From Oscillospiraceae bacterium (GTDB taxonomy: Bacteria; Bacillota; Clostridia; Oscillospirales; Ruminococcaceae): 32,000 nt of DNA. The translations under genes were made by a program, and so were the position numbers. Positions 2,152 through 23,523 of this stretch are shown one piece after another. Numbering within the stretch: position 1 is the stretch's first letter; each line of letters opens with the position of its first letter. The notes under the pieces were generated by a model, which made no database searches, had not been told where the DNA came from, and was given only the letters and a program-made list of their open reading frames with translations. Where the stretch lies: the NCBI GenBank assembly GCA_025757985.1, contig CP107210.1:1476774-1508773 (forward strand), given 5' to 3'.

Positions 2152-2717
2152 ACACGGATCAGAAGTTAAATAAGCTCGATGACTTTCTACATACAATTTC
2201 CACAGAAACAACAACCGGACTCGGCGGTGAGGCTGGATATTATGTGTTCAGCTATGACCCAAAAGATGAAATGAAAGTCCGGCACTGGACTGCACGGGAA
2301 GTTGAAATGTTGCAAGAAAACCATCGGCCAGTGGTAGAGTTTGACCTCTATAAGATTATGACCACTCTGCTGGTAGATAAGCATCCCCGAAAAAAATATG
2401 AGGGGTTGGAGATGCGTTATGGTAGTATGACGCGCGTTGTCAACGCTGCTAATAGTGTATTGCACATCGGTCTGCCGATGGATCTTATGTTGAACTATAT
2501 TGTGGAACACATACCAAAAGAAGATTCTATCATTCTTCTAACAGGTGTAGGGAAATGCTACCCACTTCTGCGTTCGCACAAAATCTTGAATGACCTGCAT
2601 GATCGTCTGGCACAGGGAATCGTACTTATGATGTTCCCCGGCAAATACGAAGATGGTTATTTGTATCTCTTTGGAGAAGTAAAGGACGGCAACAATTACC
2701 GCGCGAAGCCTATCTAA
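2148..2717 (+). CDS. brxB: BrxB (DUF1788-type BREX protein)
   Basis: The 189-aa ORF is translationally coupled to brxA and sits directly upstream of the large P-loop ATPase. The call rests on position and size. Confidence 0.7.
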   Translation: MNTDQKLNKLDDFLHTISTETTTGLGGEAGYYVFSYDPKDEMKVRHWTAREVEMLQENHRPVVEFDLYKIMTTLLVDKHPRKKYEGLEMRYGSMTRVVNAANSVLHIGLPMDLMLNYIVEHIPKEDSIILLTGVGKCYPLLRSHKILNDLHDRLAQGIVLMMFPGKYEDGYLYLFGEVKDGNNYRAKPI

Positions 2718-2743
2718 AGGAACGCGTAATGGGAGGAACCGAT

Positions 2744-6361: not shown

Positions 6362-6394
6362 GGATTTTCCGACAACAACGAAAAGAGGAACACT

Positions 6395-9300: not shown

Positions 9301-10063
9301 CACCGTGCGCAAAGCCGATTTGAGCCGCGACATCCGCAGCCTGCTCTCCTACGCAGTCGGCTGCATCCTTGGCCGCTACTCGCTGGATAAGCCCGGTCTT
9401 GCCTATGCCGGCGGTGAATGGGATGCCGGTAAATACTCCCGGTTCCAACCTGTGGCCGATAATGTGGTTCCCCTGTGCGATGAGGAATATTTCGGCGAAA
9501 ATGACCTTGTGAACCGTGTTGTAGACTTCATAAAAGAAGTGTTCGGTGCAGCGTCGCTGGAAGAAAACCTTGCGTTCATTGCCAAGGCGTTGGGCAACAA
9601 GGGCAACACCAGCCGTGAAATCATCCGCAATTATTTCCTGAAGGACTTCTTTGCAGACCACTGCAAGATTTACCAGAAGCGCCCCATCTACTGGATGTTT
9701 GACAGCGGCAAGAAGAATGGCTTCAAGGCGCTGGTCTACCTCCACCGCTGGGATGCCGATACCACCGGCCGCGTCAACAACAACTATCTCAGTCCGCTGC
9801 TGCGCACCTATGCCCAGCAGATCGTGCAGGAAAACAACGTCATTTCTGCCAGCAGCGATGCCCGCACGGTATCGCTTGCCCAAAAGCGTCTGGATAAGCT
9901 GAAGTTACAGCAGGCCGAGTGCGAAAAGTACGAGAAGAATATCGCCCACCTTGCCGGTCTGCGCATCTCCCTTGACCTTGACGATGGTGTAAAGGTCAAC
10001 TATGTCAAGGCACAGACCGCCGCCGATGGCAAAAACCTGAACGTGCTTGCACCCCTTAAATAA
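6395..10063 (+). CDS. pglX: PglX, BREX N6-adenine DNA methyltransferase
   Basis: Motif I is DPCMGSGH and motif IV is NPPY (7967-7978). The protein is 1222 aa and occupies the canonical position between brxC and pglZ. Confidence 0.9.
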   Translation: MEKASLKKFAVDARRKLIEDVKFQLGLYGITENGILEPQTGTDSALIFDLGNGNTQTIKGERYVKQYRNLVEHLRGFYGAANTKQQLDQFAEEMAYTWFNRLIAIRFMEVNRYIPVRVLSSEIKGQNLPDLVKSPFAGDLEFDENEKQQIFALQDANKEDDLFRFLFFKQCNDLNRILPYLFENLNGDDSFSELLVVLSFNDPNGVVYRLVHDIDEAWFDIHAKGDDGNPVGQVQVIGWMYQYYNTDPKDKVFADLKKNIKISKENIPAATQLFTPDWIVRYMVENSLGRLWYEGHPDFDKSEWKYYLDEAQQEPQVEQQLAEIRARYANIEPEQLKVIDPCMGSGHILCYLFDVLMQIYLDNGYSRREAVRSILENNLFGLDIDKRAAQIAYFSVMMKAREYDSGFFDRSKIPQPKVYDIKESNGINRNQLKFFGNGLSDFERNEARLQLEGLLDTLTDAKEYGSILNMGSYNWDLLRSCADVAGEDAQVSMESVGLEKTVARLKPLINIGEAMGQKYDVVVTNPPYMGGNYSPALSSYLKKNYSNSKADLFAVFEERCMEMTREKVSMVTPESWMFLYTYLGIRENIFNNFIIENIVHLGFKAFDCGFGTAAFVLDKHRVNDFKGKYDRLVGYATAEEKQLNFNNAKDVYVSSNEIFRQLPNKILAYWCKESFANVLGHTAPLGNSVELNPGIKTGNNDLFLRLWYEVAKKKTASKPTLQSLSTSKNKWYYYNKGGGYHKWYGGYEHVVDFENNALNIRATISRDTYRLRNPENYFVKGILWPLIGSDKFSCRYLPENVLSDVASNTIFFHRDFNYNVMAFMNSSVFNLILNMINPTVSYPIDSIWKVPYKSEKRLNTDDIVRQNIDLAKSDWDSFETSWDFAEHPLVKWSHDLWDCTSIAATMDYYYNGERPEVSCPVELCYMLWQGECNDRFAKLKANEEELNRIFIDIYGLQDELTPEVEDKDVTVRKADLSRDIRSLLSYAVGCILGRYSLDKPGLAYAGGEWDAGKYSRFQPVADNVVPLCDEEYFGENDLVNRVVDFIKEVFGAASLEENLAFIAKALGNKGNTSREIIRNYFLKDFFADHCKIYQKRPIYWMFDSGKKNGFKALVYLHRWDADTTGRVNNNYLSPLLRTYAQQIVQENNVISASSDARTVSLAQKRLDKLKLQQAECEKYEKNIAHLAGLRISLDLDDGVKVNYVKAQTAADGKNLNVLAPLK

Positions 10064-10070
10064 CAAACCG

Positions 10071-10109
10071 CCGATACACTGGGGTGCAATTCTGCCTCCG
10101 GTGTATTGG
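10071..10109 (+). other. Intercistronic stem-loop between pglX and pglZ
   Basis: CCGATACACTGG (10071-10082) pairs with CCGGTGTATTGG (10098-10109) over 12 bp including 2 G-U pairs, with a 15-nt loop. Only a weak T-run follows. Confidence 0.4.
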
Positions 10110-10145
10110 TGTTTATACTACAAGATAAAGGAACGATGAACCCGC

Positions 10146-12662
10146 ATGGCTAAAACGACACTGCGCCAGATAGAAGATCGCCTTCGGATTATGTTTACGC
10201 CGGGCGAACACCGCAAATTGGTGTTCTGGTACGATGAATCTGCCAGCTTTGAAGATGAGGTAGAGCAGCTGAACATCCCCGATGTGACGATCTACCACAT
10301 GGAACCGAACACACAGTTCGCCACCAAATGGATGCTGGAACTGGAGCACCCGGACGAGAGTTTCCTGATTTATGCCCCCTACGCAAAACCCGCGCTGGAG
10401 GATAATCACCTTGCCGATATGCTGTTTTATTCGCAGGAGTATTCTACCGACAGGGTGACGATGATTGCGCAGGACTTCAATCTGGATGAAAGAACGAAGC
10501 TCTTTTTGAAGGAGCATATCAGCTTCTTTGCCGCGCAGGATCGTGCCAAGAAGTTTTACGATTTTGGCACACCGGTCTATACCGAGGACACCTTTGCGCT
10601 GGCAATGCTGGCCGTGCTGTGCAAATGCCCGCCGAAGCCGGAAGAAGTGGTGCGCAGCGTACTGCGCGGTTCCTTGGATGCCGAGAATGAATCGCTGCTG
10701 GCGTTTTCTAAGTTTGGGCTGGTGAGTGATTTTTGGCAGGTCTGCCGCCGTTTGTTCGGTTATAATCCGGCAGAAAAGAGCCTGAAGGATTTAGTGACGT
10801 GCCTGTTTGCCACCTATGCCGCCCACGCAATGGACATTGATGCCCCGGACGCATGGGGGGACCGCAGCCTGCCGGAGGAAGGCGAAGTGCTGGCTTTCCT
10901 TGACAGCATGATGAACTACCTGCCCGACCAGCCGCGCTTTGAAGAATTCTCCACCGTGGCCGCGCAGGAGCTGAACGCCATGCAGACGCTTGGGCAGTTG
11001 CAGCATACAAACCCAGATTTGTTGCTGGATTGCACGGTCTTTGATGCCGCCGAGGAACAGATCGGCAGCTGGATCATAAACCGCCTGCTGGAAGAAAACA
11101 CGTCTGCCTGCCTCAAAGACCGCAGCATCAAACGCATCTGTGAGGAGCGCAGCAAGACGTATTTTGGCTCCAAGCCCGCCCGCGCAGAGCAGTACAGTCT
11201 TTTGGCGAACGCCTGCACCATTCTTGAAGCGCTGCACTTTGCACCGGTGGATGGCATTGACGCATTGGTTGCGCAGTATAAAGATACCGCGTGGCAGATG
11301 GATACCGCCTACCGCAAGTTCTATTTGAGCTATGGGAAGATCGAACGGACGCAGGACATCGAGAAGCTGCAATCGTTAGTGGAAAATGTGTACACCAACA
11401 ACTTCCTTGACCCGCTGACGGTGCATTGGTGCCAGAGCCTGTCCCGCGACCTGACGACATTCCAGACCGAACGGCAGATTGCATTTTACAGCACAAACGT
11501 CAGCAGTGTGCGGGAACGCATCGTTGTGTTTATATCGGATGCCATGCGCTATGAAGTGGCACAGCAGCTTTTTGAGAAGCTGGCATTGGATGCCAAATGC
11601 GATGCCAAGTTGACCCCTGCAGTCAGCACAGTGCCGTCCTATACGCAGCTGGGCATGGCTGCGCTGCTGCCCCATGTCAGCTTGGAGCTTCAGCCGGACA
11701 GCACGGTGACGATTCTCGGCAAAAAGACAAACGGAACCGCAGCGCGTGAAAGCATTTTGCAGGCATCCGACAAAAATAACAGCTGCATCCAGTTCGACCA
11801 GATGCAGAATATGCGGCGCGATGACCTGCGCAGCTATTTCTCCGGCAAAAATGTGGTGTTTGTTTACCACAACCAGATTGACGCGCGCGGAGATGAGGCT
11901 CGAACAGAAAATGAAGTTTTCTCCGCCTGCGAAGAAGCCGTGGAGGAACTGTATAAAGAAATCCGCCGCCTGAGCGACAATGCAAACATCCGCCACTTTA
12001 TTGTGACGGCGGACCACGGATTCCTGTACAAGCATGACCCGATTTTGGAGAGTGATAAGGTCATCAACCTGCCGCAGGCTGAAATCAAGAATAAGCGTTT
12101 TATCGTTTCAGACAGCACTGCGCCAATCGCCGGTGCAGTCGGCTATCCCTTGGGACAAGTTCTGAAAACCAAAGATACCCGCACGGTATATACGCCGCTG
12201 GGCAGCTCGATTTTCAAAATCGCCGGTGGCGGTCAGAACTATGTGCATGGCGGTGCATCGGTGCAGGAAATGGTGATTCCTGTATTGAACATCCGTACAC
12301 AATCCGGTCGCGTGGAAACCACGAAAGCGGGTATTTCCCTGCTGCCCACACCGGAAGTTCTTATGGATCGCAGAGTTCCCCTGAAATTCTTGCAGTCGGA
12401 TTTGGTGACGGACACAGTCCTGCCGGCAAATTATGAGGTCCGTATCGTAAACGAAATGGGCGATACCATTTCGACAAAGCGCACCATCGCAGCCGACAAA
12501 CTGGCCGGTTGCCGGGATGAAGAACGGTATACTGATGTGGTGCTGACTTTGAAAAATAATCCGTATTCGCGCGAACGCAATTATTATTTCCTGCTGGTAG
12601 ACAAGGAGACGGGAGAAACAGCCGAAAAGCGCCCGGTGAAAATCGACATCGTGAAACAGTGA
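10146..12662 (+). CDS. pglZ: PglZ, alkaline-phosphatase-superfamily BREX protein
   Basis: FISDAMRYEV and VTADHGF are typical of the PglZ domain. The protein is 838 aa and sits in the canonical position. Confidence 0.88.
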   Translation: MAKTTLRQIEDRLRIMFTPGEHRKLVFWYDESASFEDEVEQLNIPDVTIYHMEPNTQFATKWMLELEHPDESFLIYAPYAKPALEDNHLADMLFYSQEYSTDRVTMIAQDFNLDERTKLFLKEHISFFAAQDRAKKFYDFGTPVYTEDTFALAMLAVLCKCPPKPEEVVRSVLRGSLDAENESLLAFSKFGLVSDFWQVCRRLFGYNPAEKSLKDLVTCLFATYAAHAMDIDAPDAWGDRSLPEEGEVLAFLDSMMNYLPDQPRFEEFSTVAAQELNAMQTLGQLQHTNPDLLLDCTVFDAAEEQIGSWIINRLLEENTSACLKDRSIKRICEERSKTYFGSKPARAEQYSLLANACTILEALHFAPVDGIDALVAQYKDTAWQMDTAYRKFYLSYGKIERTQDIEKLQSLVENVYTNNFLDPLTVHWCQSLSRDLTTFQTERQIAFYSTNVSSVRERIVVFISDAMRYEVAQQLFEKLALDAKCDAKLTPAVSTVPSYTQLGMAALLPHVSLELQPDSTVTILGKKTNGTAARESILQASDKNNSCIQFDQMQNMRRDDLRSYFSGKNVVFVYHNQIDARGDEARTENEVFSACEEAVEELYKEIRRLSDNANIRHFIVTADHGFLYKHDPILESDKVINLPQAEIKNKRFIVSDSTAPIAGAVGYPLGQVLKTKDTRTVYTPLGSSIFKIAGGGQNYVHGGASVQEMVIPVLNIRTQSGRVETTKAGISLLPTPEVLMDRRVPLKFLQSDLVTDTVLPANYEVRIVNEMGDTISTKRTIAADKLAGCRDEERYTDVVLTLKNNPYSRERNYYFLLVDKETGETAEKRPVKIDIVKQ

Positions 12663-12674
12663 GGAGTGTAAATC

Positions 12675-15600
12675 ATGGAATACGCAACAGCTATTTCAAA
12701 AATGAATGAGTACCTCATTAAAGCCGCGCAGCTGTGCCGTAACTGGCTGGAGCCGCGCTTGAAAAGAATCGATTCACATGACTGGTGGCAAACTACGGTT
12801 TGCACCAACTTGTCTGATATGCAGTTGGAACAGGTGCAGCGCAACAATATAACTACACTTGACGGTCTTGATCTGCAAGCTTTGCTGCGTGTGATTCAGC
12901 GCAATTTGTACCCTCTTGGCAACTATGAGTATTTTACGAATTACCATGAAATGAAGGATGCCATCCGGCAGATGTTTCAGGTTCGTAATGATGTGGCACA
13001 TACGACTTTGCTTGACTATTCGGAAGAGAAGATTAAAGTCGCTATGACAAGGTACATCAACTTTATGGAACTGTTCGATGGTGATAGAAGCGACATCAAC
13101 GAAGCCAAGGAGTTCCGGGCTACACTTATTAACCCGGAGCATGCTAACCCTATCCGTATTCCGGAGCCAGTCAGCGTTCAGCCTAAACCAGCGGAGGTGC
13201 GTGTTGCAGCGCAGCCTGTAAAGGCAATGGCGCAGCCTTTTGCTGTGGGGACGATTGTTCACAAAAAGAGCGACCCCAGCCAGATGGGACCCATTATGCA
13301 AATCCGTGGTGAGGGCGACAAGGCAGAGTATAGTGTCTGGGTCAATAACAGGGTTGAGACTCTTTATGCCGACCAACTGCTGCTCAATGATGTAACCCCG
13401 AAGCGGTACAATGTCACCATTGATGAACTAAAGGTGCTTCTGACCGCACAGCAGCTTTGCAACCCGTCTAACGATCAGTTGTACTCCTTGAATGCGGCGC
13501 GTGTGGATTTTGTTCCGTATCAGTTCCGACCGGCATTGAAGATGATTCATTCCGAGCGTCCGCGCATTCTGGTCGCGGATAGTGTTGGTGTCGGTAAAAC
13601 GATTGAGGCTGGACTGATTCTTCGCGAATTGCAGGCCCGTAATGAAGATTTTGAATCCGTTCTGATTATTTGCCCCAAGCCGCTGGTCGCTGAGCACAAG
13701 TGGCGTACCGAAATGAAACGGTTTGATGAGAACTTTACCGAGCTGGATGGTGTGACTCTCCGAGAAGCAATCAATGAATATGATAGAGAGGGCGAATGGC
13801 CGATGGCCATGCGCAAGATGATTCTGCCTTATTCGCTGATGACAAAGGAACTTCTCAATGGTAAGGGCAAGCAAAAAGGCTTGCTGGACTTGGAAGATCC
13901 TGTCCATTTTGATCTTGTTATCATAGATGAGGCACATCATATGCGCCATTCCAATACTGGCGCTTACAGGGTTGCACGCTATTTTACTGATAACGCTGAT
14001 GCCGTTGTTATGCTGACCGCAACACCTGTGCAGACGGACGATGATGATTTGTATACGCTGCTGAACGCTTTGCGCCCGGATGTGATTCTGGATAAAAAGA
14101 CCTTTAGGGAAATGCAGGAACCGAATGCGGAAATCAACGCGGCCGCACGACTGATTCGGCATCAGGCAAACAACTGGCGTTCCGAATCTGCTGAGCATTT
14201 AACTAATGCCGCGCAGACCAGCTGGGGTCGTAGTGTTATTGCAGAAAATCCAACTTACAAAAATGTGATGACACAGCTAAAAAGCGGAGAGACGCTTGAT
14301 CGTACAGCGCGTATTGGTATCCTTCACGATGTTGAAGGACTGCACAGTTTTTCGGGAATGATCAACCGAACCCGCAGACAGGATATACAGAATGATTTCT
14401 GCGTGCGTCGTCCTCAAAGTATTTCTGTCAACTTTACCGCAGAACAACAAAAGCTGTATGATGCGTTGATGGACTTTGAATCTAATGCACTTAGCTATTT
14501 GCACAGCAGTGTTCCCCTAACATTTATGATGAGCACACTGATGCGTCAGGCGTCCAGCTGCATTTTTGGACTTGCACCGTTGCTTAAGGGAATGGTGAAT
14601 CGGCGCTTGGCCGATGTTTTGTCTGATTATTGCGCCGAAGATGGGAACGTCTCGGTAGCTGATCTTGAAAACATCAAATTGGGCGGTCTTGAGGCTGATT
14701 TCCGCAAGATGGCGAATTATGTAATCGAATTGTCGGAAAATCTTCCTCAGACAGACGAAAAATTGGATCGTTTGTTTGAGGTGATAGAAAATAAGTCTCA
14801 CCAGCCAAACAATAAAATTATACTGTTCAGTTCTTTCCGCCATACACTGCGCTACTTGGAGCAGCACCTTGTTGAGCGCGGCTATCGCGTGGCACAAGTA
14901 AACGGCAGCGTTAAAGACGAAGAACGCTTGGATCTCCGCAAACGATTTGAACTTCCAGCAGACAATGCTAATGCATTGGATATTTTACTGTTTACCGAGG
15001 TTGGTTGCGAAGGTCTGGATTATCAGTTCTGCGATTTTATGATTAACTATGACCTCCCGTGGAACCCGATGGCGATTGAGCAGCGTATTGGTCGTATTGA
15101 TCGACGTGGTCAAAAGAGTGATACCGTTATCATTTGCAATATTGTAACCGAAGGAACCATTGATGCGAAAATCTATCACCGTTGCTTGGAGCGTATTGGT
15201 ATTTTTGAAAACTCCATCGGTGAGTGCGCAGGCATTTTGGGCGATATGACCCAGCAAATCAACGAAGCAATTTTTGATTCTACGCTCACGCAACAAGAAC
15301 GTGAAGAAAAGATTGAAAAAATTGCAGATAACGAAGTCTCCAGAGCAAGCGAGATGAAAAAGCTCGAAGATGAAAGCAAGGAACTGTTTGGCATTGACTT
15401 GTCTGGCTATGTAATGGATCGCAGTGTTACAGAAGCAGAAAATCCGTGGATTGGCGAAAGATATATTCAGGCGCTTGTGATTGACTACTTTAATAAAGTC
15501 CTTGGGGAAAAGAAAAATTACATTCAAGGCGATGGAGCGCATAAGGTTTTGACATTGAGTGGCGAGAATAGAGCCACACTAAAGCGGTTGCTTCGCAGTT

Positions 15601-16295
15601 CCGGTATGAAAAAATCGGAAATGTACAACCAATGGTTAGACTATCTAAAGGGAAACGATACGCGAGTTTCTGTGACCTTCGACCAAGAAGAAGCTGCACG
15701 TGATAGGAATGCCATTTTCTTCACCGCAGTGCATCCCCTTGTAAAAATGGCGGCGATGGAACTTCATAAAAAGCAAGAGGTCTATATACAGCTTTTTGTT
15801 AGCGCCAATGACTACCCTGTTAATTGCGGAGATTATCCGTTCTTAATAGAAGAACGGATAATCATCGGGATGCGAAAAGAAGTTCGGATTGTTCCTATCT
15901 CTGACATCAGCTTGTCGGCATCGGATTTTTGCGATTTATTGGAAACTGCAGATTATCGAGATGTTCCTGATGCGTGTGCAGAGAATCAATGGGAAAAGCT
16001 GTCTCGGTTAAAGCGTGAGCAATGGCAGCAGGCTGTTACTCAACTCAAGGCAGACGTAAGGGAAAAGTGTGATTACCGCCGTGCAGCCGTTTTGAAAAGT
16101 TATCAATTCCGAAAAGAGGATTTGACGGCGAGAATTCAAAATGTAGCAGATGCCAATATTTTGCGTATGTACAAGAGTCAGCTTAGCAGTCTTGAGGATG
16201 AGAAGAACGAAAGGCTAAAGGAATTGTCCGATATTCAGGAACGTGCAACTGTAGAAGAAAACACCTTGGTGAAGGGCATTATTACTGTCTGCTGA
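12675..16295 (+). CDS. SNF2/RapA-like superfamily-2 helicase with an N-terminal Swt1-like HEPN domain, a small beta-barrel and a long C-terminal helical extension (BrxHII-like position)
   Basis: The HEPN R-x4-H motif is RNDVAH (R104 at 12984-12986, H109 at 12999-13001). Helicase motifs are I (DSVGVGKT), II (IIDEAHHMR), III (LTATPVQ) and VI (QRIGRIDRRGQ). A GAGGAG RBS starts 12 nt after the pglZ stop. Confidence 0.85.
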   Translation: MEYATAISKMNEYLIKAAQLCRNWLEPRLKRIDSHDWWQTTVCTNLSDMQLEQVQRNNITTLDGLDLQALLRVIQRNLYPLGNYEYFTNYHEMKDAIRQMFQVRNDVAHTTLLDYSEEKIKVAMTRYINFMELFDGDRSDINEAKEFRATLINPEHANPIRIPEPVSVQPKPAEVRVAAQPVKAMAQPFAVGTIVHKKSDPSQMGPIMQIRGEGDKAEYSVWVNNRVETLYADQLLLNDVTPKRYNVTIDELKVLLTAQQLCNPSNDQLYSLNAARVDFVPYQFRPALKMIHSERPRILVADSVGVGKTIEAGLILRELQARNEDFESVLIICPKPLVAEHKWRTEMKRFDENFTELDGVTLREAINEYDREGEWPMAMRKMILPYSLMTKELLNGKGKQKGLLDLEDPVHFDLVIIDEAHHMRHSNTGAYRVARYFTDNADAVVMLTATPVQTDDDDLYTLLNALRPDVILDKKTFREMQEPNAEINAAARLIRHQANNWRSESAEHLTNAAQTSWGRSVIAENPTYKNVMTQLKSGETLDRTARIGILHDVEGLHSFSGMINRTRRQDIQNDFCVRRPQSISVNFTAEQQKLYDALMDFESNALSYLHSSVPLTFMMSTLMRQASSCIFGLAPLLKGMVNRRLADVLSDYCAEDGNVSVADLENIKLGGLEADFRKMANYVIELSENLPQTDEKLDRLFEVIENKSHQPNNKIILFSSFRHTLRYLEQHLVERGYRVAQVNGSVKDEERLDLRKRFELPADNANALDILLFTEVGCEGLDYQFCDFMINYDLPWNPMAIEQRIGRIDRRGQKSDTVIICNIVTEGTIDAKIYHRCLERIGIFENSIGECAGILGDMTQQINEAIFDSTLTQQEREEKIEKIADNEVSRASEMKKLEDESKELFGIDLSGYVMDRSVTEAENPWIGERYIQALVIDYFNKVLGEKKNYIQGDGAHKVLTLSGENRATLKRLLRSSGMKKSEMYNQWLDYLKGNDTRVSVTFDQEEAARDRNAIFFTAVHPLVKMAAMELHKKQEVYIQLFVSANDYPVNCGDYPFLIEERIIIGMRKEVRIVPISDISLSASDFCDLLETADYRDVPDACAENQWEKLSRLKREQWQQAVTQLKADVREKCDYRRAAVLKSYQFRKEDLTARIQNVADANILRMYKSQLSSLEDEKNERLKELSDIQERATVEENTLVKGIITVC

Positions 16296-16314
16296 TTGAA
16301 TTTGAGGAAGTACT

Positions 16315-19011
16315 ATGGGAGATTTATTTGCTGAAATTCGAAAACAGCACATTGAAGATTATGGTTCAAAATTTGAAGAGTGGGCTCCACGCATTTTGGT
16401 GGATCAATATAGTGACCGGACGCATTTTATCTATGAGTTGATTCAGAATGCCGAGGATGCAGGAGCAACATATCTGACGTTTAATCTTTACCCTGATCGT
16501 CTTGTGTTGTGCCATAATGGAAAGCCGTTTACAGAAGCCGATATTCGAGGGATATGTGGTATACGGTCAACAAAGGATGAGCCGGACTCCGGTAAAATTG
16601 GAAGATTTGGCATTGGATTCAAATCGGTTTATGCGTATACCAAAACGCCAGCTATCTATTCTGGACAATATGCGTTTAGAATTCAAAATTTGATTCTTCC
16701 GTATGCCGAAAACAATATATCCTCTGAAGGGAATACAGTTCTCATTTTGCCATTTGACGGCAATGTGAATGCCGATGTCGCTAATTGTGATATTGAAATT
16801 GCCTTAAGAAAGTACATTTCTTCAGATGTTCTTTTCGCACTCCATAATATCAAAAAAATAGGTTGCAAGGTTTATCCAACTGAAGAAGAGTGGACCATTG
16901 TCAAGCAAAGTAATCCCCTATCTGAATTCGTCGATCACATTCATATTATTGAAGAGCCCTATAATGAAGAAAAAGAATTGCTTGTTTTCCATACAACGGA
17001 CAGCCAGCCGATTTTAATAGGATATAGCTTGGCAGAAGCAGAAGATGGAAAAAAATATGTGATACCTGCTAATCAGCATTATCTTTATGTTTTTTTCCCA
17101 ACATCTGTTGAAACACATTTGTCTTTTTATATCCATGCCCCGTTCTCTACTACACCGGCTCGCGACAATGTTCGCCATAATGAAATCAACAAAGTTCTTT
17201 CAAAACAGTTAAATCAATTGTTTGCCGATAGTATAAAATGGCTGCTTGAACACGGCTATGTAACGCTCAAGTTCCTTAACAATGTCTATCCACTGGAGGA
17301 TGATTGCAGAGAAGAAACACTACAGGGACTTTACTACACCGGGAAAAAGTTGTTTGAAGAGGGCGTTCGGCTTTTTCAAACGGAAGATAATGATTATTGC
17401 TCAGTCCCAGAAGCCGTCCTGCCGTATGCAAAAAATATACCTGAAAGCATTACACAAGAGATATTGCAAAGTGAAAATGAAAATCGTGTTTGCTGGGTTA
17501 AAGCAGATGTTTGTACAGAGGCCTACGCACGGTTATGGGAATACTTGACGCATACATTAGGTATCAAGGTCTTGCGTTGGAGAGATGTTCTTCCAAAACT
17601 GGGTGCTGAAATACTTGAGAAACAATCTGATGAATGGCTCTTGCATCTGCTGGATGTTATTTATCCTACTTGCACTGGTTTCTTGAAGCTGAGGGATAAA
17701 GTAGATGCTCGTACAATTCCCCTTGTTCGCCTTCAAGATGGTAGACATATCTGCTGCCAGTATGAGGGCGTTGCGCAGGTTTATATAAATAATCCGATTT
17801 CTTGTAAAAACAAAATTCGAAATTCGATTCTTTACGATGAACGTGGGTATGAGTTTTATACAGACGCACTTGGAATTGGAGAGTACAATGCTGTTCAAGA
17901 ATTGAAAGATGATGTGGTGTGCTTTTACGGGGAAGATTCAGAGGATACAGATATTCCTTTTGAAGACAATATTGAACATTTCTCGGTTATCAAGCGTGCG
18001 CTAAAGGAAAATGAAACAGAGGTTCGAAAGATTCTAAAAAATGTACCAATCGTACTGAGTAATGCAGGATGGATGCCACCTACAGCCTGCTATTTGCCTG
18101 ATGAAATGGTAAATCGGACACCACAAGAGAGCCAGTTACTTCATGGGGTGAATTTGAAGTGGGTATCTGACAGATATAAGGAATATGTGGCAGCAGATGT
18201 ATTCAAAAAAATCGGATGTAATGTAACTCTGAAGTCAATCCAAGTTGATAAAAGAAGCTATTTGGAATTGCTGTCGCAGTACAATCCTGATTTGTGTGTG
18301 AAGGTACGTGGAGCAATATTTAATAAAACCTACACTGAAATTATAGAAACCACTGAGCCAGAGATTTGGAATTGGTCGTTTGCGATTGATCATATTGGGG
18401 AATTGCTTTCGGAAGTATCGCTTGAAAAATCGCTTGAAATCGTTGATTACTTGGATGATGTCGTAAAAAGCCATCCACTATATGGCACTATGCGAGGAGC
18501 AAACGATAGAAATTTCAACGGAAAAAGTGTTGCAACACTTGGAAATATTCCGTCTGCATTAGCGGTAGCGTTGGAATCGGCAAAATGGCTATATGACGCT
18601 GATGGAACGGCAAAGATTGCTTCTGAGCTAAAACGTTCCGAACTTCACGCAGTCTATACTGGGCACGGTAGGAAATTGTTTGCGCAACTCAATTTTATCG
18701 AGGAAAATGAAGCAGTAGAGGCTGCCATTCAAAGCGTAGATACACCCTATCAGGATTTCGTCAGTACAATGCTGAAGAAACCCGATGAATTACGTTGGAT
18801 GTATGAAGCCTATCAAAAGTTCCAGAAGAAGAAAATGAAGGAGGAACAGCAACCAAAATCTTTAATTCAAGTGCTGGAAAGTCAGAGCAGCGAACAGACG
18901 GAGATAGATGCTAATTCTGCACCAGATGATGAAACATTGGGTGAATATGGCGCTGTCCGAAATGTAAACCGTCGTGAAAAAAATTGGAAGAAAGCTTTCA
19001 GGAAGGCTTAG
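16315..19011 (+). CDS. Sacsin/NOV-type GHKL (Bergerat-fold) ATPase with an uncharacterised C-terminal region of about 700 aa
   Basis: The N-box is YELIQNAEDAGAT (ELIQNAEDA at 16435-16461). The G1-like motif is HNGKPFTEADIRGI and the G2 motif is IGRFGIGFKSVY. The gene starts 19 nt after the helicase stop with a GAGGAAG RBS. Confidence 0.8.
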   Translation: MGDLFAEIRKQHIEDYGSKFEEWAPRILVDQYSDRTHFIYELIQNAEDAGATYLTFNLYPDRLVLCHNGKPFTEADIRGICGIRSTKDEPDSGKIGRFGIGFKSVYAYTKTPAIYSGQYAFRIQNLILPYAENNISSEGNTVLILPFDGNVNADVANCDIEIALRKYISSDVLFALHNIKKIGCKVYPTEEEWTIVKQSNPLSEFVDHIHIIEEPYNEEKELLVFHTTDSQPILIGYSLAEAEDGKKYVIPANQHYLYVFFPTSVETHLSFYIHAPFSTTPARDNVRHNEINKVLSKQLNQLFADSIKWLLEHGYVTLKFLNNVYPLEDDCREETLQGLYYTGKKLFEEGVRLFQTEDNDYCSVPEAVLPYAKNIPESITQEILQSENENRVCWVKADVCTEAYARLWEYLTHTLGIKVLRWRDVLPKLGAEILEKQSDEWLLHLLDVIYPTCTGFLKLRDKVDARTIPLVRLQDGRHICCQYEGVAQVYINNPISCKNKIRNSILYDERGYEFYTDALGIGEYNAVQELKDDVVCFYGEDSEDTDIPFEDNIEHFSVIKRALKENETEVRKILKNVPIVLSNAGWMPPTACYLPDEMVNRTPQESQLLHGVNLKWVSDRYKEYVAADVFKKIGCNVTLKSIQVDKRSYLELLSQYNPDLCVKVRGAIFNKTYTEIIETTEPEIWNWSFAIDHIGELLSEVSLEKSLEIVDYLDDVVKSHPLYGTMRGANDRNFNGKSVATLGNIPSALAVALESAKWLYDADGTAKIASELKRSELHAVYTGHGRKLFAQLNFIEENEAVEAAIQSVDTPYQDFVSTMLKKPDELRWMYEAYQKFQKKKMKEEQQPKSLIQVLESQSSEQTEIDANSAPDDETLGEYGAVRNVNRREKNWKKAFRKA

Positions 19012-19454
19012 AGGGAACAACTGCGGTAGCACCGCGATTGCACTACGTTTACTCAGAGAGTAATCAGGGAGAAAAAGCTTTCTTGGCGGCACAATATTAT
19101 GGAAAATGCCAAATCTGCGGAAAACAGATTTTTCGTAGTAATGGAAAGCCTTATTTTGAAGCCTGCAATATTCTCCCGACTAATGCTATTCCAGATAGGT
19201 ACAAACATAGCATTTCAGAAGGTTGGAATTCTCTTTGTCTATGTCCTAACTGTGCTGCTGAATTTAAGTACGGAAAAAAGAATCTGTCTGAGCTTATTTC
19301 GATGATACAAGATTACCATGTGAAAGAAAATGACGAAAATTTGATTACCTGCAGGATAGAAATGCAGGGAGAACAAAGGACAATCAAATATACTGGAAAG
19401 CATTTCTTGGCACTGCAAAAAGCAATTGAGTATTATTCCGACGATGCTAAATGA
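18984..19454 (+). CDS. Cys4 zinc-ribbon protein with HNH-like topology but without the catalytic His. It has only a TTG start and may be the frameshifted C-terminus of the GHKL protein.
   Basis: CQICG (from 19107), FEACNILP, WNSLCLCPNCAAEF follow the order of an HNH motif, with His replaced by Cys/Asn and Ala/Glu. The ORF has no ATG before residue 107. Its frame opens only at 18978, inside an A7 run. Confidence 0.5.
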   Translation: MEESFQEGLEGTTAVAPRLHYVYSESNQGEKAFLAAQYYGKCQICGKQIFRSNGKPYFEACNILPTNAIPDRYKHSISEGWNSLCLCPNCAAEFKYGKKNLSELISMIQDYHVKENDENLITCRIEMQGEQRTIKYTGKHFLALQKAIEYYSDDAK

Positions 19455-19602: not shown

Positions 19603-20283
19603 ATGACAAAAGATGAAGTAAAAAAACTCAGGATGAACAGTCCGGAATCACTACAGTTTTTAAATAATGCTACAAAATTTTATAATTTAATGATGATGTA
19701 TCGTTGTGCTATTCGGGAGATACAAACTAAGCTTGAGGTTTTGGATGATGAATTTTCAGTTGAGAACAATCGAAATCCTATTTCTTTTATAAAAACAAGA
19801 ATTAAGAAGCCCAATAGTATTTACAATAAACTGCAGAAGATGGGATATGAATTTACAACAGAAAATATACAGATATATCTCAATGATGTAGCAGGCGTTC
19901 GAATAGTTTGTGCGTTTATTGACGATATTTATATGATATCAGATTTGATTACCAAACAGGATGATATTAAAGTTATTGAAATAAAAGATTATATAAAAAA
20001 TCCAAAATCGAATGGTTATCGAAGCTATCATATGATTGTTGAAATACCAGTATTTTTTGCTAAGGGTAAAACACCTATGCGTGTAGAATTACAGATTCGA
20101 ACCAATGGTATGGATTTCTGGGCAACGTTGGAACATCAACTTCGCTATAAAAAAGGAATTGAAGAAATGCCTGGCTATGATGAGATAAGTGAAGAATTAC
20201 TTCATTCTGCAAGAGCTATCATTGAAGCAGATAATGAAATGCAGAGAATAAAAGACAAAATTGGTATGTTCCACGAAATTTAA
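19603..20283 (+). CDS. Small alarmone synthetase (RelA/SpoT-domain GTP pyrophosphokinase, RelQ/RelP-like)
   Basis: Motifs are VAGVRIVC, YRSYHMIV, ELQIRT and WATLEHQLRYK. At 226 aa it is single-domain sized. Confidence 0.85.
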   Translation: MTKDEVKKLRMNSPESLQFLNNATKFYNLMMMYRCAIREIQTKLEVLDDEFSVENNRNPISFIKTRIKKPNSIYNKLQKMGYEFTTENIQIYLNDVAGVRIVCAFIDDIYMISDLITKQDDIKVIEIKDYIKNPKSNGYRSYHMIVEIPVFFAKGKTPMRVELQIRTNGMDFWATLEHQLRYKKGIEEMPGYDEISEELLHSARAIIEADNEMQRIKDKIGMFHEI

Positions 20284-20319
20284 GCAGAAATTTGATCGAA
20301 TAGAAAGGTTGGAATATAT

Positions 20320-21879
20320 ATGAAACAAGATACTTTAGAAGGAAAAGCGAAAACAAAAAACGGAGTAAAACGATTGTGTTTTTCCATAGTCTGCATTCTT
20401 CTAGAAGTAGTTTTTATTATTACTATTGTAACACGCTTAAATGAATATGCAGAAATCATAAATCTATTTACAAGGATTTTAAGTGGAATTTTAGTTTTGG
20501 GATTGTATGCATCAGATAAGACATCTTCCATGAAAATGCCTTGGGTTATATTAATTTTAATTTTCCCAATTATGGGTGTAGGCCTATATTTATTGATTGG
20601 TTTGAATGGCGGCACACATAAAATGCGTGAGCGATATGCAGAAATTGATAGCAAATTGTTACCAATGCTTTCCGATAATCAGGAGTGCTTAAACAGAATA
20701 AACGAAACGATTCCGAAGGCAGGAAATATTGCAAGTTATATACAAAGAAATTCGCAGTATCCAATCTATCAGAATACGGATATTGTGTATTTTGATGAAG
20801 CAGTGAAAGGATTAGAGGCACAGCTTAAGGATTTGGAGAAAGCACAAAAGTTTATCTTTATGGAATATCATGCGATAGAAGACGCTGAAGCATGGCATAA
20901 GATTCAAGATGTTCTGGAAGAGCGAGTAAAAGCAGGTGTGGAAGTTAGAGTATTCTACGATGATATGGGTTCTATAGGCTTTATTAACACAGATTTTGTG
21001 AAAAAAATGGAGGCAATAGGAATTCATTGCCGTGTATTCAATCCGTTTATGCCAGGTTTAAATCTGTTTTTGAACAATCGTGATCATAGAAAAATAACAG
21101 TTATTGATGGAAAAGTCGGATTTACAGGTGGATATAATCTAGCAAACGAATATTTTAATTACACACACCCGTATGGACAGTGGAAAGATACAGGTATTCG
21201 TTTAGAAGGAGATGCTGTTCAGTCGCTTACAGTGACATTTTTAGAAATGTGGAATGCTGTTAGTGAAAAAGCTACGAATGATACTGATTTTAGTAAATAC
21301 ATTATTCATTACGATTATAAAGCACAGCAAACAGGTTTTGTTCAGCCTTATGCAGACAGTCCTATGGATAATGAGCAGGTCGGAGAAGAAGTTTATATCA
21401 GTATGATAAATAAAGCTGAAAAATATTGTTGGTTTATGACTCCATATCTAATCATAACAGATGAAATGACGCATGCGTTATGTCTGGCTGCTAAGCGAGG
21501 GGTAGACGTAAGAATTATCACACCTGGTATCCCTGATAAAAAATTCATTTATAATGTAACTCGTTCTTTTTATCATGGATTAGTTAAACATGGTGTTCGT
21601 GTTTATGAGTGGACTCCTGGTTTCTGTCATGCAAAAATGAGTGTGGCAGATGACTGTATGGCAACTTGTGGAACAATTAATTTGGATTATCGAAGTTTAT
21701 ATCACCATTTTGAAAACGGCTGTTTTATGGCAGATTGTCAGGCAGTTGTGGAAATAAAAAATGATCTGATAAGAACGATGGGAGAATGTCGTGATGTGAC
21801 AGACCAATATCAAACCGGACGAAGTGCATATTTGCGACTGGGACAATTATTTATGAGATTATTTGCTGGATTGCTATAA
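20320..21879 (+). CDS. cls: Cardiolipin synthase
   Basis: Two HKD motifs are present, HRKITVIDGKVGFTGGYN and HAKMSVADDCMATCGTINLD. Two N-terminal TM helices and the 519-aa size fit. Confidence 0.88.
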   Translation: MKQDTLEGKAKTKNGVKRLCFSIVCILLEVVFIITIVTRLNEYAEIINLFTRILSGILVLGLYASDKTSSMKMPWVILILIFPIMGVGLYLLIGLNGGTHKMRERYAEIDSKLLPMLSDNQECLNRINETIPKAGNIASYIQRNSQYPIYQNTDIVYFDEAVKGLEAQLKDLEKAQKFIFMEYHAIEDAEAWHKIQDVLEERVKAGVEVRVFYDDMGSIGFINTDFVKKMEAIGIHCRVFNPFMPGLNLFLNNRDHRKITVIDGKVGFTGGYNLANEYFNYTHPYGQWKDTGIRLEGDAVQSLTVTFLEMWNAVSEKATNDTDFSKYIIHYDYKAQQTGFVQPYADSPMDNEQVGEEVYISMINKAEKYCWFMTPYLIITDEMTHALCLAAKRGVDVRIITPGIPDKKFIYNVTRSFYHGLVKHGVRVYEWTPGFCHAKMSVADDCMATCGTINLDYRSLYHHFENGCFMADCQAVVEIKNDLIRTMGECRDVTDQYQTGRSAYLRLGQLFMRLFAGLL

Positions 21880-21892
21880 GAATCTGATGAAA

Positions 21893-21949
21893 CGACCTTT
21901 CAAAAAACAGTTGATTTAGAAGTTAACTGTTTTTGAAAGGCCGTTTTTG
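21893..21949 (+). terminator. Rho-independent terminator after cls
   Basis: A long imperfect hairpin pairs CGACCTTTCAAAAAACAGTT with AACTGTTTTTGAAAGGCCG, followed by TTTTT (21944-21948). Confidence 0.7.
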
Positions 21950-22089
21950 CTATATCTAACAGTCTGTTGTACAAAGAAGATTTTGCATGGATGAAAAAAC
22001 AAACCTTGTTGAGGTTAAATTGAGTTTTCCATTGTATTGTATTGCTAATGAATAAGAATAAGAAATAAAAAGGAATCAGGTGATGTACA

Positions 22090-23523
22090 ATGAAAAAGCA
22101 TAAAATATGTAAAATCCTTCTTGTTATACTGGCAATTTTTTTATGTGTGGCTTTTTATGAATTGCTCGGAATCTGCGTTGCATATAAAAAGCAGCCGGAA
22201 GTGTCCAATACAACCAAAAAAGAAACAAAAAATGGGTCATGGAACGAATGCAGTGAAAATACAGAACGGGCAGTAATCATAGAAAAGAATCCAGAAGCGC
22301 TTTTACAAAGAGTGCGTTTGATCAAGAATGCAAAAAAGGAAATTATTCTTTCTACTTTTGCATTTCAATCCGATGAAAGTGGAAAATTGATCTTAGGAGC
22401 ACTGCATGATGCGGCAGACAGAGGTGTACATATTCGTCTGTTAGTAGATGGAATGGAGAGCTGGATTGATATGGAAGGAAATCCGTATTTCTATGGATTA
22501 TCTTCCCATGAGAATGTTGAAATTAAACTGTATAATAAGGCCAATCCGTTGAAACCGTGGAAAATGATGGGTAGAATGCATGATAAATATTTGATTGCAG
22601 ATGGAAAGAGATATATTCTTGGGGGAAGAAATACATACAATTATTTCCTGGGCGATTTTCCGGGACATAAGAACTATGACAGAGACGTGTTAGTGGTTTG
22701 CGATGAACCTGAGAAAGAAAATTCAGTTAACCAGTTGTTAGAGTATTTTGAAACGATATGGGAACAAGAAGACAGTGATTATTTTCATGACAATAAAAAA
22801 CTGGCAAATAGAAAATCTGTAAAGAACGCAGTTTTAGAGCTGCAGAACGGCTATCAGAAATATTTTGAAGAGAATAAGGAAAGAATCTGCGATACCGATT
22901 ACACGGACGAAACTTTTGAGACAGAAAAGATTGCATTAGTGTCAAATCCTATTCACACAGGTTCCAAAGAACCAGTAGTGTGGTATCAGTTGGGAAAATT
23001 GATGAAAAATGCAAAAAATCGTGTGAAGATCCACACGCCATATATTATCTGTAATGATATGATGTATAATACATGGGAGGAGATTGCAGAGAACGTTTCA
23101 GATTTTTCTATCATGACAAATTCAGTTGCGAATAATGGGAATCCATTTGGGGCTGCCGATTATGCGAAAAACAGAAATAGAATCTTAAGTACAGGAATTA
23201 ATATCTGGGAATATGAAGGCGGTTATTCATACCATGGAAAAAGTATTCTGATTGACGATGATCTGTCTGTAATCGGTTCCTTTAATATGGACATGAGAAG
23301 TGCATATCTGGATACGGAACTGATGCTTGTAATTCGCAGTAAAGATATTAATAAACAGTTGGAAGAGGGCATGATGGAATATGAAAGAGTGTCCCGCCAG
23401 ATATTAGAAGGCGGAACTTATAATGATCCATATCATGTAGAGCCAATCGAATTAACAAAGAAACGTCAGAGAAAAATATTTTTGGTACAGCATCTGCTTG
23501 GATGGGCAAGGTATCTGTTTTAA
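22090..23523 (+). CDS. Membrane-anchored phospholipase D / cardiolipin-synthase-like family protein
   Basis: An N-terminal TM anchor is followed by two HKD motifs, HDKYLIADGKRYILGGRN and HGKSILIDDDLSVIGSFNMD. Confidence 0.8.
   Translation: MKKHKICKILLVILAIFLCVAFYELLGICVAYKKQPEVSNTTKKETKNGSWNECSENTERAVIIEKNPEALLQRVRLIKNAKKEIILSTFAFQSDESGKLILGALHDAADRGVHIRLLVDGMESWIDMEGNPYFYGLSSHENVEIKLYNKANPLKPWKMMGRMHDKYLIADGKRYILGGRNTYNYFLGDFPGHKNYDRDVLVVCDEPEKENSVNQLLEYFETIWEQEDSDYFHDNKKLANRKSVKNAVLELQNGYQKYFEENKERICDTDYTDETFETEKIALVSNPIHTGSKEPVVWYQLGKLMKNAKNRVKIHTPYIICNDMMYNTWEEIAENVSDFSIMTNSVANNGNPFGAADYAKNRNRILSTGINIWEYEGGYSYHGKSILIDDDLSVIGSFNMDMRSAYLDTELMLVIRSKDINKQLEEGMMEYERVSRQILEGGTYNDPYHVEPIELTKKRQRKIFLVQHLLGWARYLF

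Follow-up and report, generated by a model that had tools for sequence, protein, structure and literature searches.

A two-gene unit stands directly after the bacteriophage exclusion (BREX) genes of an Oscillospiraceae bacterium of the family Ruminococcaceae. It lies in a stretch of 32,000 nucleotides (nt) on contig CP107210.1 (assembly GCA_025757985.1, positions 1,476,774 to 1,508,773 of the forward strand), hereafter called the window. Gene 1 encodes a predicted SNF2 helicase with a putative HEPN RNase domain, and gene 2 a GHKL ATPase of predicted sacsin/Hsp90 type, which ends in a degenerate HNH-like zinc finger. The helicase and the sacsin-type GHKL ATPase form a stable unit, which is mobile, occurs across phyla and is found in defence neighbourhoods. 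In the window, the second gene is split into two open reading frames (ORFs), ORF2 and ORF3, by the loss of one A. Hence, there are two genes here, and not the “trio” counted by the initial annotation, which had been made from the sequence alone.

Conservation of the helicase–GHKL pair

The initial annotation had suggested to look for linkage of these genes beyond BREX loci and for their occurrence among defence genes. Our linkage scan used one genome per species and covered 80 loci, 20 of which contained a full-length homologue of the GHKL/zinc-finger protein and enough upstream DNA. A helicase homologue was located directly upstream and on the same strand in all of these species-level loci (20/20), which span Lachnospiraceae, Bacillus, Actinomycetota, Caldilineaceae, Nostoc, Thioalkalivibrio, Arenicellales, Desulforegulaceae, Dormibacteraeota, Latescibacterota and Bathyarchaeota. 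By higher taxa, the pair ranges over Firmicutes, Actinomycetota, Chloroflexi, Cyanobacteria, Proteobacteria and Bathyarchaeia. On short contigs with a full-length GHKL homologue (Bathyarchaeia L027, Caldisericota L040 and Halanaerobiaceae L050), the 3′ part of the helicase was found at the contig edge. Loci matching only the N-terminal half of the GHKL protein, which belong to the wider sacsin/Tiamat-like family, were without the helicase. The matches in the plasmid collection were all partial, of the DUF3883 type (Tiamat-like) or other kinds, and none was a full-length homologue.

The linkage extends well beyond BREX. PglZ was encoded upstream of the pair in two of the 20 loci, those of Faecalibacterium langellae, which is close to the window, and of Lachnospiraceae LC2019, and the pair occurred without BREX genes in 18/20. 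The pair is also often found among defence genes, as revealed by a PADLOC analysis of 103 neighbours of stand-alone pairs, which detected MADS, PDC-S68, Gabija, PARIS AriA, type I specificity subunits, a type IV restriction enzyme and HEC-01B.

Some loci carry further components. Tandem sacsin-type GHKL paralogues follow the helicase in two of them (L009 6294-13219 and L014 6058-13126). In stand-alone Firmicute loci, a giant superfamily 1 (SF1, UvrD-like) helicase of 1131-1924 amino acids (aa) is located directly 3′ of the pair (Table 1); two of these helicases contain a Macro domain, and their N-terminal ~600 aa are unannotated. Furthermore, in the proteins P0028-P0038 (~1570-1583 aa), the GHKL body (aa 1-870, 36% identical to P0001, the closest intact relative of gene 2) is fused to an SF1 helicase (AAA_11/AAA_12), which replaces the finger. 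These fusions argue for a functional coupling of ATPase and helicase.

A single gene broken by a one-nucleotide deletion

The ORF coordinates, the gaps of 12 and 19 nt between the genes and the overlap of ORF2 with ORF3 (28 nt) are as initially annotated. ORF3 is in the −1 frame relative to ORF2, opens directly after a stop codon, and has a TTG start without a ribosome-binding site. For the homologue search, ORF2 and ORF3 were joined as if the A-run at their junction were A8 instead of A7. The best match to this fused reading was P0001, a protein of 1046 aa with 99% identity at 100% query coverage, whose junction reads ...NRREKKLEESFQ..., as predicted from the fused reading. More than 100 homologues of 1030-1075 aa span 99-100% of the fused reading. 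Moreover, in cluster representatives (556 clusters at 50% identity, E<1e-3), the zinc-finger domain occurs almost solely at the C-terminus of ~1050-aa proteins.

The same picture emerges from the DNA. The contigs L001, L002 and L096-L100 carry A8. Two of them, L001 and L002, share 98.6-99.2% identity with the window along ~10 kb, and in the comparison with L002 over 9.6 kb the A-run was the sole frameshifting difference, the other indel being an in-frame one of 3 nt in the helicase gene. Contigs with a 100% identical helicase encode the intact 1046-aa gene, and over 3,140 nt the run is the only difference between A7 and A8 alleles. Because the A8 contigs and more than 100 homologues encode a single protein of ~1046 aa, ORF2 and ORF3 are one gene, and positions 16315-19454 should be merged in the annotation as one frameshifted gene.

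The window copy is a naturally circulating frameshift allele. Exactly its 898-aa product is encoded by 14 contigs, and the five occurrences that were retrieved each come from a different human-gut sample. Given this recurrence, and a single frameshift in 9.6 kb, a sequencing error is unlikely. Programmed −1 frameshifting at A_AAA_AAT was rejected as the primary reading, since intact relatives carry A8 in frame. Phase variation was considered as well, as A7 is found on two haplotypes, yet one A8-to-A7 event and one substitution account for both. A short stand-alone match to ORF3 (P0251, 156 aa) might have represented a naturally split gene, but it comes from a 698-bp contig and is a fragment. 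The GHKL protein of the window copy is probably impaired, with its ATPase body parted from the zinc finger, unless some transcripts regain the frame by slippage on the A-run. The cloning of the window genes, as initially proposed, would therefore probably be a poor choice.

A predicted SNF2 helicase with a Swt1-type HEPN domain

Gene 1 had been described as a combination of a Swt1-like HEPN domain (RNDVAH), a small beta-barrel and an SNF2 core, and this description holds. Pfam places SNF2-rel_dom at aa 298-599 (75.7 bits, cut-off 24.9) and Helicase_C at aa 696-812 (81.3 bits, cut-off 23.5), along with ResIII. The helicase motifs GVGKT, DEAHH and QRIGRIDRRGQ (motif VI) are intact, and the gene product is predicted to be an SNF2 family helicase. 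Among the PADLOC profiles, it matched DrmD (4e-110), BrxHI (9e-61), BrxHII (3e-41), HmaA (1.5e-40) and also DpdE. The C-terminal ~400 aa, initially taken for helical sequence of unknown affiliation, match the C-terminal regions of two NCBIfam models. The RapA model spans aa 265-1168 (188 bits, equivalog cut-off 576) and the DrmD model (NF038317) aa 689-1186 (284 bits, cut-off 610), and the helicase stays under every curated NCBIfam equivalog cut-off. This C-terminal region (HelC) is kept in all partner helicases.

The N-terminal domain is a Swt1-type HEPN domain and a putative RNase with an intact Rx4H site. The window protein scores just below the cut-off of Pfam HEPN_Swt1 (PF18731; E 7e-5, 23.5 bits, cut-off 27.5), and seven of seven orthologues match this profile, with a best E-value of 1.9e-21. 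R104 and H109 are unchanged in 7/7 divergent orthologues, which have 21-27% identity to the window protein in the HEPN region. In the structure model this region is all-helical, with a predicted local distance difference test score (pLDDT) of ~90. Searches of the PDB did not recover the HEPN fold, as Foldseek gave the Tudor-like barrel alone and a profile search returned nothing; the assignment is consequently based on the Pfam match and the Rx4H motif. About one in two partner helicases has the HEPN domain, and the others begin at the barrel.

The barrel has five predicted strands. Foldseek matched it to the 53BP1 Tudor domain, the C-terminal Tudor domain of UvrD, the KOW domains of NusG/Spt5 and PWWP domains, with probabilities of ~1.0 and weak E-values (0.1-1). 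Of the structural comparison suggested by the initial annotation, the Tudor-like barrel and the Hsp90/sacsin fold of gene 2 were thus recovered, and no HEPN structure was retrieved.

A sacsin/Hsp90-type ATPase with a degenerate HNH finger

The N-terminus of ORF2 had been annotated as a sacsin-type Bergerat ATPase, which is corroborated by two profiles above their cut-offs: Pfam SACS (65 bits, cut-off 32.8) and the NCBIfam sacsin domain NF047352 (94 bits, cut-off 50). ELIQNAEDA and GRFGIGFKSVY are invariant, and E41, N45, D48, G96, G99, G101 and K103 are unchanged across homologues. Together with those of the helicase, the ATP-binding motifs are thus invariant in both proteins. An AlphaFold2 (AF2) model of the fused gene 2 product, based on 106 homologues, reached a pLDDT of 85 on average. 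Within it, aa 1-500 match the N-terminal and middle domains of TRAP1/Hsp90 (~525 columns, E 1e-8) and sacsin SR1 (1e-7) in Foldseek, and MutL, GyrB, topoisomerase II and MORC rank lower. A PDB sequence search pointed the same way, with E 1e-16-1e-17 for sacsin versus 1.5e-3 for MORC2, and the MORC-type HATPase_c_3 (PF13589) stayed under its cut-off (E 8e-4, 19.9 bits, cut-off 25). These comparisons place the protein in the sacsin/Hsp90 clade and argue against membership in MORC/paraMORC.

The following region, aa 500-860, is modelled confidently (pLDDT mostly 85-95). Neither sequence nor Foldseek searches found a PDB match or relatives beyond the family, and the region is kept in the GHKL–SF1 helicase fusions. 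In the model, a disordered linker separates it from the C-terminal finger.

The initial description of ORF3 as a Cys4, HNH-like finger without the catalytic His stands, although the finger does not belong to a separate gene. Its profile matches the HNH domain of Escherichia coli McrA (6ghc, E 1e-3), and it is on this match that the kinship with the HNH fold rests. In the alignment with McrA, the finger retains the two CxxC pairs and the structural Asn, but has Asn in place of the general-base His and Ala or Tyr in place of the metal-binding His; these losses are found in every family member. The finger is thus unlikely to be an active HNH endonuclease. It is best read as a putative DNA- or protein-binding zinc finger.

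The BREX-1 locus

The helicase is preceded on the same strand by a BREX-1 core, brxA-brxB-brxC-pglX-pglZ, in one operon (1546-12662). A GGAG/GAGGA ribosome-binding site precedes both the helicase gene and ORF2, and the short gaps of 12-19 nt imply a co-transcription of the BREX core, the helicase gene and the GHKL gene. No ORF of at least 100 aa across the 32-kb window matched BrxL or Lon (Pfam, PADLOC). Hence the initial statement of an upstream BREX core without a Lon-like BrxL is borne out by Pfam, PADLOC and NCBIfam: the five core genes of BREX type 1 are present, and brxL, its sixth gene, is not. All coordinates are collected in Table 1.

Table 1. Features of the BREX-1 locus and of the helicase–GHKL pair in the window, followed by components of related loci (contig given before the position)
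Feature	Position	Strand	Basis
brxA	1546-2151	+	Pfam, PADLOC matches
brxB	2148-2717	+	Pfam, PADLOC matches
brxC	2729-6361	+	Pfam, PADLOC matches; single copy
pglX	6395-10063	+	NCBIfam BREX-1 PglX 1262 bits (cut-off 500)
pglZ	10146-12662	+	NCBIfam PglZ type A 544 bits (cut-off 270)
Gene 1, 1206-aa HEPN–Tudor-like–SNF2 helicase	12675-16295	+	ORF, Pfam, PADLOC, NCBIfam
Swt1-type HEPN domain, aa 1-152	12675-13130	+	PF18731, motif, helical model
Rx4H motif RNDVAH	12984-13001	+	orthologue alignment
Small beta-barrel, aa 190-240, Tudor/KOW/SH3-like	13242-13394	+	predicted structure, Foldseek
SNF2 ATPase core, aa 265-860	13467-15254	+	Pfam
C-terminal region as in RapA/DrmD-type helicases, aa 861-1206	15255-16295	+	NCBIfam models
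Gene 2, sacsin/Hsp90-type GHKL ATPase with C-terminal HNH-like zinc finger	16315-19454	+	fused reading
ORF2, 898 aa, 5′ part of gene 2	16315-19011	+	
Bergerat ATPase and Hsp90-like middle domain, aa 1-500	16315-17814	+	SACS, motifs, Foldseek
Family-specific alpha/beta region, aa 500-860	17815-18894	+	AF2 model
A7 homopolymer, 1-nt deletion site (A8 in intact alleles)	18977-18983	+	contig comparison
ORF3, 156 aa, TTG start, 3′ part of gene 2	18984-19454	+	
HNH-fold Cys4 zinc finger (CQIC...WNSLCLCPNCAA), predicted catalytically degenerate	19095-19271	+	profile alignment to McrA
Giant SF1 helicase	L004 8653-14427		
Giant SF1 helicase	L005 13201-17451		
Giant SF1 helicase	L006 13180-18867		
Giant SF1 helicase	L007 13181-16909		
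Giant SF1 helicase	L008 13142-18616		
Giant SF1 helicase	L010 13178-16573		
1225-aa GHKL paralogue without zinc finger, Coprococcus-type BREX locus	L086 13610-17287		

The GC content differs among the genes of the island: 51-53% in brxC and pglZ (62-66% at third codon positions, GC3), 46% in the helicase gene, 40% in the GHKL gene (GC3 35%) and 31-37% in the flanks. The counts initially put forward, 18/60 in 16321-16380 versus 32/60 in 5041-5100, are exact. As evidence of a separate acquisition they are weak, since the whole island is mosaic in its composition, brxA/brxB and a segment within pglX being part of this. This pglX segment (7984-9007) has 36.8% GC, compared to 50-54% in the remaining pglX, and could not be aligned to contig L001, although identity is 92-99% in the adjoining parts of pglX. 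Its appearance is that of an exchanged target-recognition segment, and such an exchange would alter BREX specificity among close relatives.

Just 3′ of the GHKL gene, positions 19603-23523 hold a RelA_SpoT gene (YjbM-like small alarmone synthetase-like, below cut-off) and two phospholipase D-type, cardiolipin-synthase-like genes, followed by a two-component system. Weak PADLOC matches of these genes to PDC-S33 and DrmC probably reflect shared folds. A Tn916-type tyrosine integrase is encoded ~9 kb 3′ of the island (28111-29346), and an extracytoplasmic function sigma factor-like gene (15-383) and a BlaI/CopY-like repressor gene (763-1188) are located 5′ of it.

Attachment to BREX and decay in gut lineages

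The attachment of the helicase after pglZ, in a BREX-1 locus without BrxL, recurs in two helicase lineages that are ~42-44% identical, with gaps of 12-35 nt. One of them comprises the window and F. langellae, the other Lachnospiraceae LC2019 and Coprococcus, two branches that are 64% identical and differ in their GHKL complements. In the lineage of the window, brxB-brxC-pglX-pglZ is followed by the helicase, an intact GHKL gene and then the RelA_SpoT gene, as in the window. In the Coprococcus/Lachnospiraceae lineage (helicase 44% identical), a BREX-1 locus lacking BrxL is followed by the helicase, then by a GHKL paralogue of 1225 aa that lacks the finger, and by an SF1 helicase. The Coprococcus-type BREX loci use only this paralogue.

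A different combination was found in L089 (3310-13588), where a Dcm methylase, a BpuJI_N/NOV_C (DUF3883) nuclease and a second Dcm (C5) methylase are followed by the GHKL gene and the HEPN–SNF2 helicase, in inverted order. This context resembles a restriction-modification locus and differs from BREX. Among the methylation-based systems to which the pair is coupled time and again, BREX-1 loci that lost or never had BrxL come first.

Several BREX-linked relatives carry broken genes. In a very common human-gut lineage (P0179, contigs L083-L085, helicase 81% identical, 323 collection blocks), the BREX genes and the helicase are followed by a GHKL gene truncated to 513-527 aa, which is adjoined by genes of mobile elements, either a TraG fragment or a serine recombinase. 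The interval between pglX and pglZ in these contigs has embedded genes for DUF4160, Hypoth_Ymh and Schlafen(AlbA_2)+HATPase_c_4 proteins. In F. langellae CNCM I-4541, the helicase gene has an in-frame stop at codon 99, just before RNDWAH (L003 6651-6653); the remainder can restart as an ORF of ~1110 aa minus the first 99 residues. Two sister contigs, whose helicase is 100% identical, have defects in pglX: an A4-to-A5 frameshift in L097 (~6332) and a nonsense mutation at codon 113 in L099. These two pglX alleles point to ordinary decay rather than to phase variation.

Relation to known systems

The initial claim that no named system has this composition holds for PADLOC-DB v2.0.0 (2023) and NCBIfam, neither of which includes a named system that covers the pair. 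In PADLOC-DB, the GHKL protein matched nothing but TmtA of Tiamat, and in NCBIfam it carries only the name “sacsin N-terminal ATP-binding-like domain”. The openly searchable full texts on GHKL or sacsin proteins with SNF2, BREX or phage defence, which exclude subscription papers, did not name the pair either.

The frame set by the initial annotation, in which GHKL ATPases pair with SF2 helicases as described by Iyer, Abhiman and Aravind, was right. Their study of 2008 reported operons that combine MORC proteins with SWI2/SNF2 helicases and HNH nucleases, and predicted an ATP-driven engine for DNA clamping or looping (PMC2292703). The MORC/paraMORC operons resemble our pair in that a GHKL ATPase, a SWI2/SNF2 helicase and an HNH-superfamily domain are united in a conserved operon. 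They differ in that here the GHKL protein is of the sacsin clade, the HNH domain is part of the ATPase protein and apparently dead, the helicase bears a HEPN domain, and there is a link to BREX. A fusion of HEPN and SWI2/SNF2 has been listed before, with WQE_15321 as an example, and its HEPN domain was assigned to the Swt1/Abi2 clade and predicted to be active (Anantharaman et al. 2013, PMC3710099). Unlike in our case, neither a GHKL partner nor a BREX link was described there.

The closest defence relative of the GHKL protein is TmtA of Tiamat, which has an N-terminal sacsin-type GHKL and middle domain as well (PADLOC TmtA, E 3e-47 over approximately the first 500 aa). Both proteins end in a domain with a nuclease fold. 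However, the TmtA profiles comprise 1063-1782 positions, most of them 1300 or more, and only their first ~540 positions were matched. TmtA has been reported with a PD-(D/E)XK-type nuclease, and Tiamat is a single-gene system, whereas the GHKL protein here ends in a dead HNH finger and its full-length form is always paired with an SNF2 helicase. By these features, the pair does not appear to belong to Tiamat, defined as a single large protein with a C-terminal PD-(D/E)XK/DUF3883 nuclease.

RapA-like SNF2 helicases and PglX-like methylases form the core of DISARM I, ARMADA, BREX-3/5 and Hma/BR. Gene 1 shares with DrmD (DISARM I), ArmA (ARMADA), BrxHII (BREX-3/5) and HmaA (Hma/BR) the Tudor-like barrel, the SNF2 core, the RapA-like C-terminal domains and the linkage to a PglX-like N6-adenine methylase, and differs from them in its additional N-terminal HEPN domain. 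The partners differ too: here it is a GHKL ATPase, in DISARM and ARMADA a YprA/DUF1998 helicase, and in Hma/BR a DUF499/BrxC ATPase. With a DrmD model score of 284 versus 610 bits, and no DrmA or DrmB in the window by Pfam and PADLOC profiles, the locus is not DISARM class I. In ARMADA, YprA and UvrD helicases accompany the RapA-like helicase and the PglX-like methylase, and a GHKL protein is missing; ARMADA, the YprA-family systems and a modularity-network preprint were all discarded as a match, as none involves a GHKL partner. Hma was discarded as a GHKL-containing system because HmaC is a DUF499 protein (PMC12839542). The pair does not belong to Hma or another DUF499-centred system, as the HmaA match is a generic SNF2 match and the partner is GHKL, not DUF499.

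Regarding BREX itself, the initial annotation placed the genes in the slot of BrxL. Their position after pglZ and the missing BrxL agree with this, although a helicase instead of BrxL is not new. In a survey from 2026, BrxL was present in only 74% of type-1-like BREX loci (missing from ~26%), where it was often replaced by helicases, as it was in BREX types 5 and 6 (PMC12839542). The main text of this survey does not mention GHKL, sacsin, MORC, HSP90 or HATPase. BREX types 5 and 6 have the same order as the window, brxA-brxB-brxC-pglX-pglZ and then a helicase, without brxL. Unlike in these types, the core genes of the window fit BREX-1 models rather than those of BREX-5 or BREX-6, brxC is single and the partner is a GHKL protein. 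The BREX-5 models gave 40 bits for PglZ (cut-off 250) and 223 bits for PglX (cut-off 900), and the locus is not BREX type 5, which has type-5 PglX and PglZ, a duplicated brxC and BrxHII. Overall, the pair is a real, unnamed variant of a known theme, that of GHKL ATPases with SF2 helicases in restriction-like systems, combined with a helicase in the BrxL slot.

Outside prokaryotes, eukaryotic sacsin and plant NOV have the sacsin-type, Hsp90-like ATPase, and sacsin also combines it with a HEPN domain. The HEPN domain of sacsin, however, is of the HEPN-T clade and part of the same polypeptide as the ATPase, and neither a helicase nor an HNH finger is present. Sacsin is a eukaryotic chaperone, while the helicase–GHKL pair is encoded in an operon.

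A proposed mechanism and its alternatives

We propose that the SNF2 motor, being of the RapA/DrmD/BrxHII/ArmA type, would track along DNA. The GHKL protein would dimerise upon ATP binding, as Hsp90, MutL or MORC do, and grip DNA via its dead HNH finger; as a clamp or switch, it would thereby license the motor. Upon meeting foreign DNA (in BREX loci, DNA without PglX methylation), the complex would stall replication in one of two ways: the pair may assume the DNA-engaging role of BrxL beside the BREX core, or the HEPN RNase, an optional component, may be unleashed as an abortive-infection effector. We infer this ATP-gated clamp from the 20/20 linkage, the pairing with a second GHKL paralogue and in the Dcm locus, the helicase fusions, the invariant ATP motifs and Rx4H site, the kept zinc ligands and the defence neighbours. 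That the two-gene operon encodes a mobile motor and GHKL unit, working in this manner either alone in defence islands or joined to systems that methylate self DNA, seems to us rather probable. More tentatively, and with less than an even chance in our view, the HEPN–SNF2 helicase and the sacsin-type GHKL/dead-HNH protein could constitute an unrecognised, self-sufficient anti-phage or anti-plasmid system, in which an Hsp90/sacsin-like ATP-gated clamp controls a translocase-tethered RNase, and which can plug into BREX replacing BrxL.

Several points weigh against the proposed mechanism. The pair is a good candidate for a defence module, a role drawn solely from its genomic surroundings. Most stand-alone loci lack a DNA methyltransferase within a distance of three genes, so that methylation-based discrimination cannot be general. 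Likewise, the HEPN domain cannot be a universal effector, because it is missing from about half of the partner helicases, and no active DNase was recognisable in either the helicase or the GHKL protein. Finally, the frequent gene decay in BREX-linked gut lineages could mean that the module is dispensable or costly.

How far the pair depends on BREX can be read in two opposite ways. It might be a fully autonomous defence system that merely adjoins BREX or is embedded in it, neither depending on PglX methylation nor replacing BrxL. The many pairs without BREX genes (18/20) or a nearby methylase would fit this, as would the differences in GC and GC3 from the BREX core and the reports of unrelated systems commonly embedded in BREX. 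Yet the post-pglZ attachment recurs in two helicase lineages, another locus ties the pair to Dcm methylases and a nuclease, and RapA-like SNF2 helicases act with PglX-like methylases in several known systems, which makes complete autonomy unlikely. The opposite extreme would be that both genes are dedicated BREX subunits in a type-5-like arrangement, BrxHII and an accessory ATPase standing in for BrxL, inactive outside BREX. Although the brxL position of the genes, the helicase replacements known from BREX types 5 and 6, and the matches to the BrxHI/BrxHII profiles speak for it, we regard this as improbable: the pair occurs mostly outside BREX, PglX and PglZ exceed the cut-offs of the BREX-1 but not of the BREX-5 models, brxC is not duplicated, and the helicase scores higher against DrmD than against BrxHII.

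A separate matter is whether the module still works in this genome. It may be a decaying remnant without current function, the frameshift being one of several circulating loss-of-function alleles, and this is a serious possibility that we place not far below even. The A7 allele occurs in at least five independent gut assemblies in DNA otherwise identical to A8 alleles, sister contigs have a frameshift or a nonsense mutation in pglX (L097 and L099), and a related, common lineage has truncated GHKL genes. On the other hand, the 898-aa product retains the whole ATPase body, the helicase is intact and the A7/A8 run could switch through slippage; either way, the argument concerns this allele alone and not the nature of the module. 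A housekeeping function, for example a RapA-like recycling of RNA polymerase aided by an Hsp90-like chaperone, might be suggested by the RapA-like architecture of the helicase and by a GHKL fold nearest to Hsp90/TRAP1 and sacsin. We consider it highly improbable in view of the patchy cross-phylum distribution and mobile-element association, the toxin-type HEPN domain and HNH-derived finger, the linkage to BREX, restriction-modification and other defence genes, and a RapA equivalog score of 188 versus 576 bits.

Implications

BREX is widespread, and how it stops phages is not settled. The recurrent and, in gut bacteria, very common replacement of BrxL described here is a natural experiment on what the sixth BREX component must do. 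As the pair also occurs alone, in many phyla and in archaea, it may be a defence system of its own, missed by PADLOC v2 and NCBIfam.

The implications could reach beyond bacteria. Sacsin is mutated in the ataxia ARSACS, and both sacsin and plant NOV are poorly understood. If the self-sufficient system suggested above is real, the pair would provide a first functional handle on prokaryotic sacsin/NOV-like ATPases, and the first tractable bacterial model for sacsin-type GHKL ATPases. In addition, the coexistence of a sacsin-type ATPase and a HEPN domain in human sacsin, so far unexplained, would have a precedent in bacteria.

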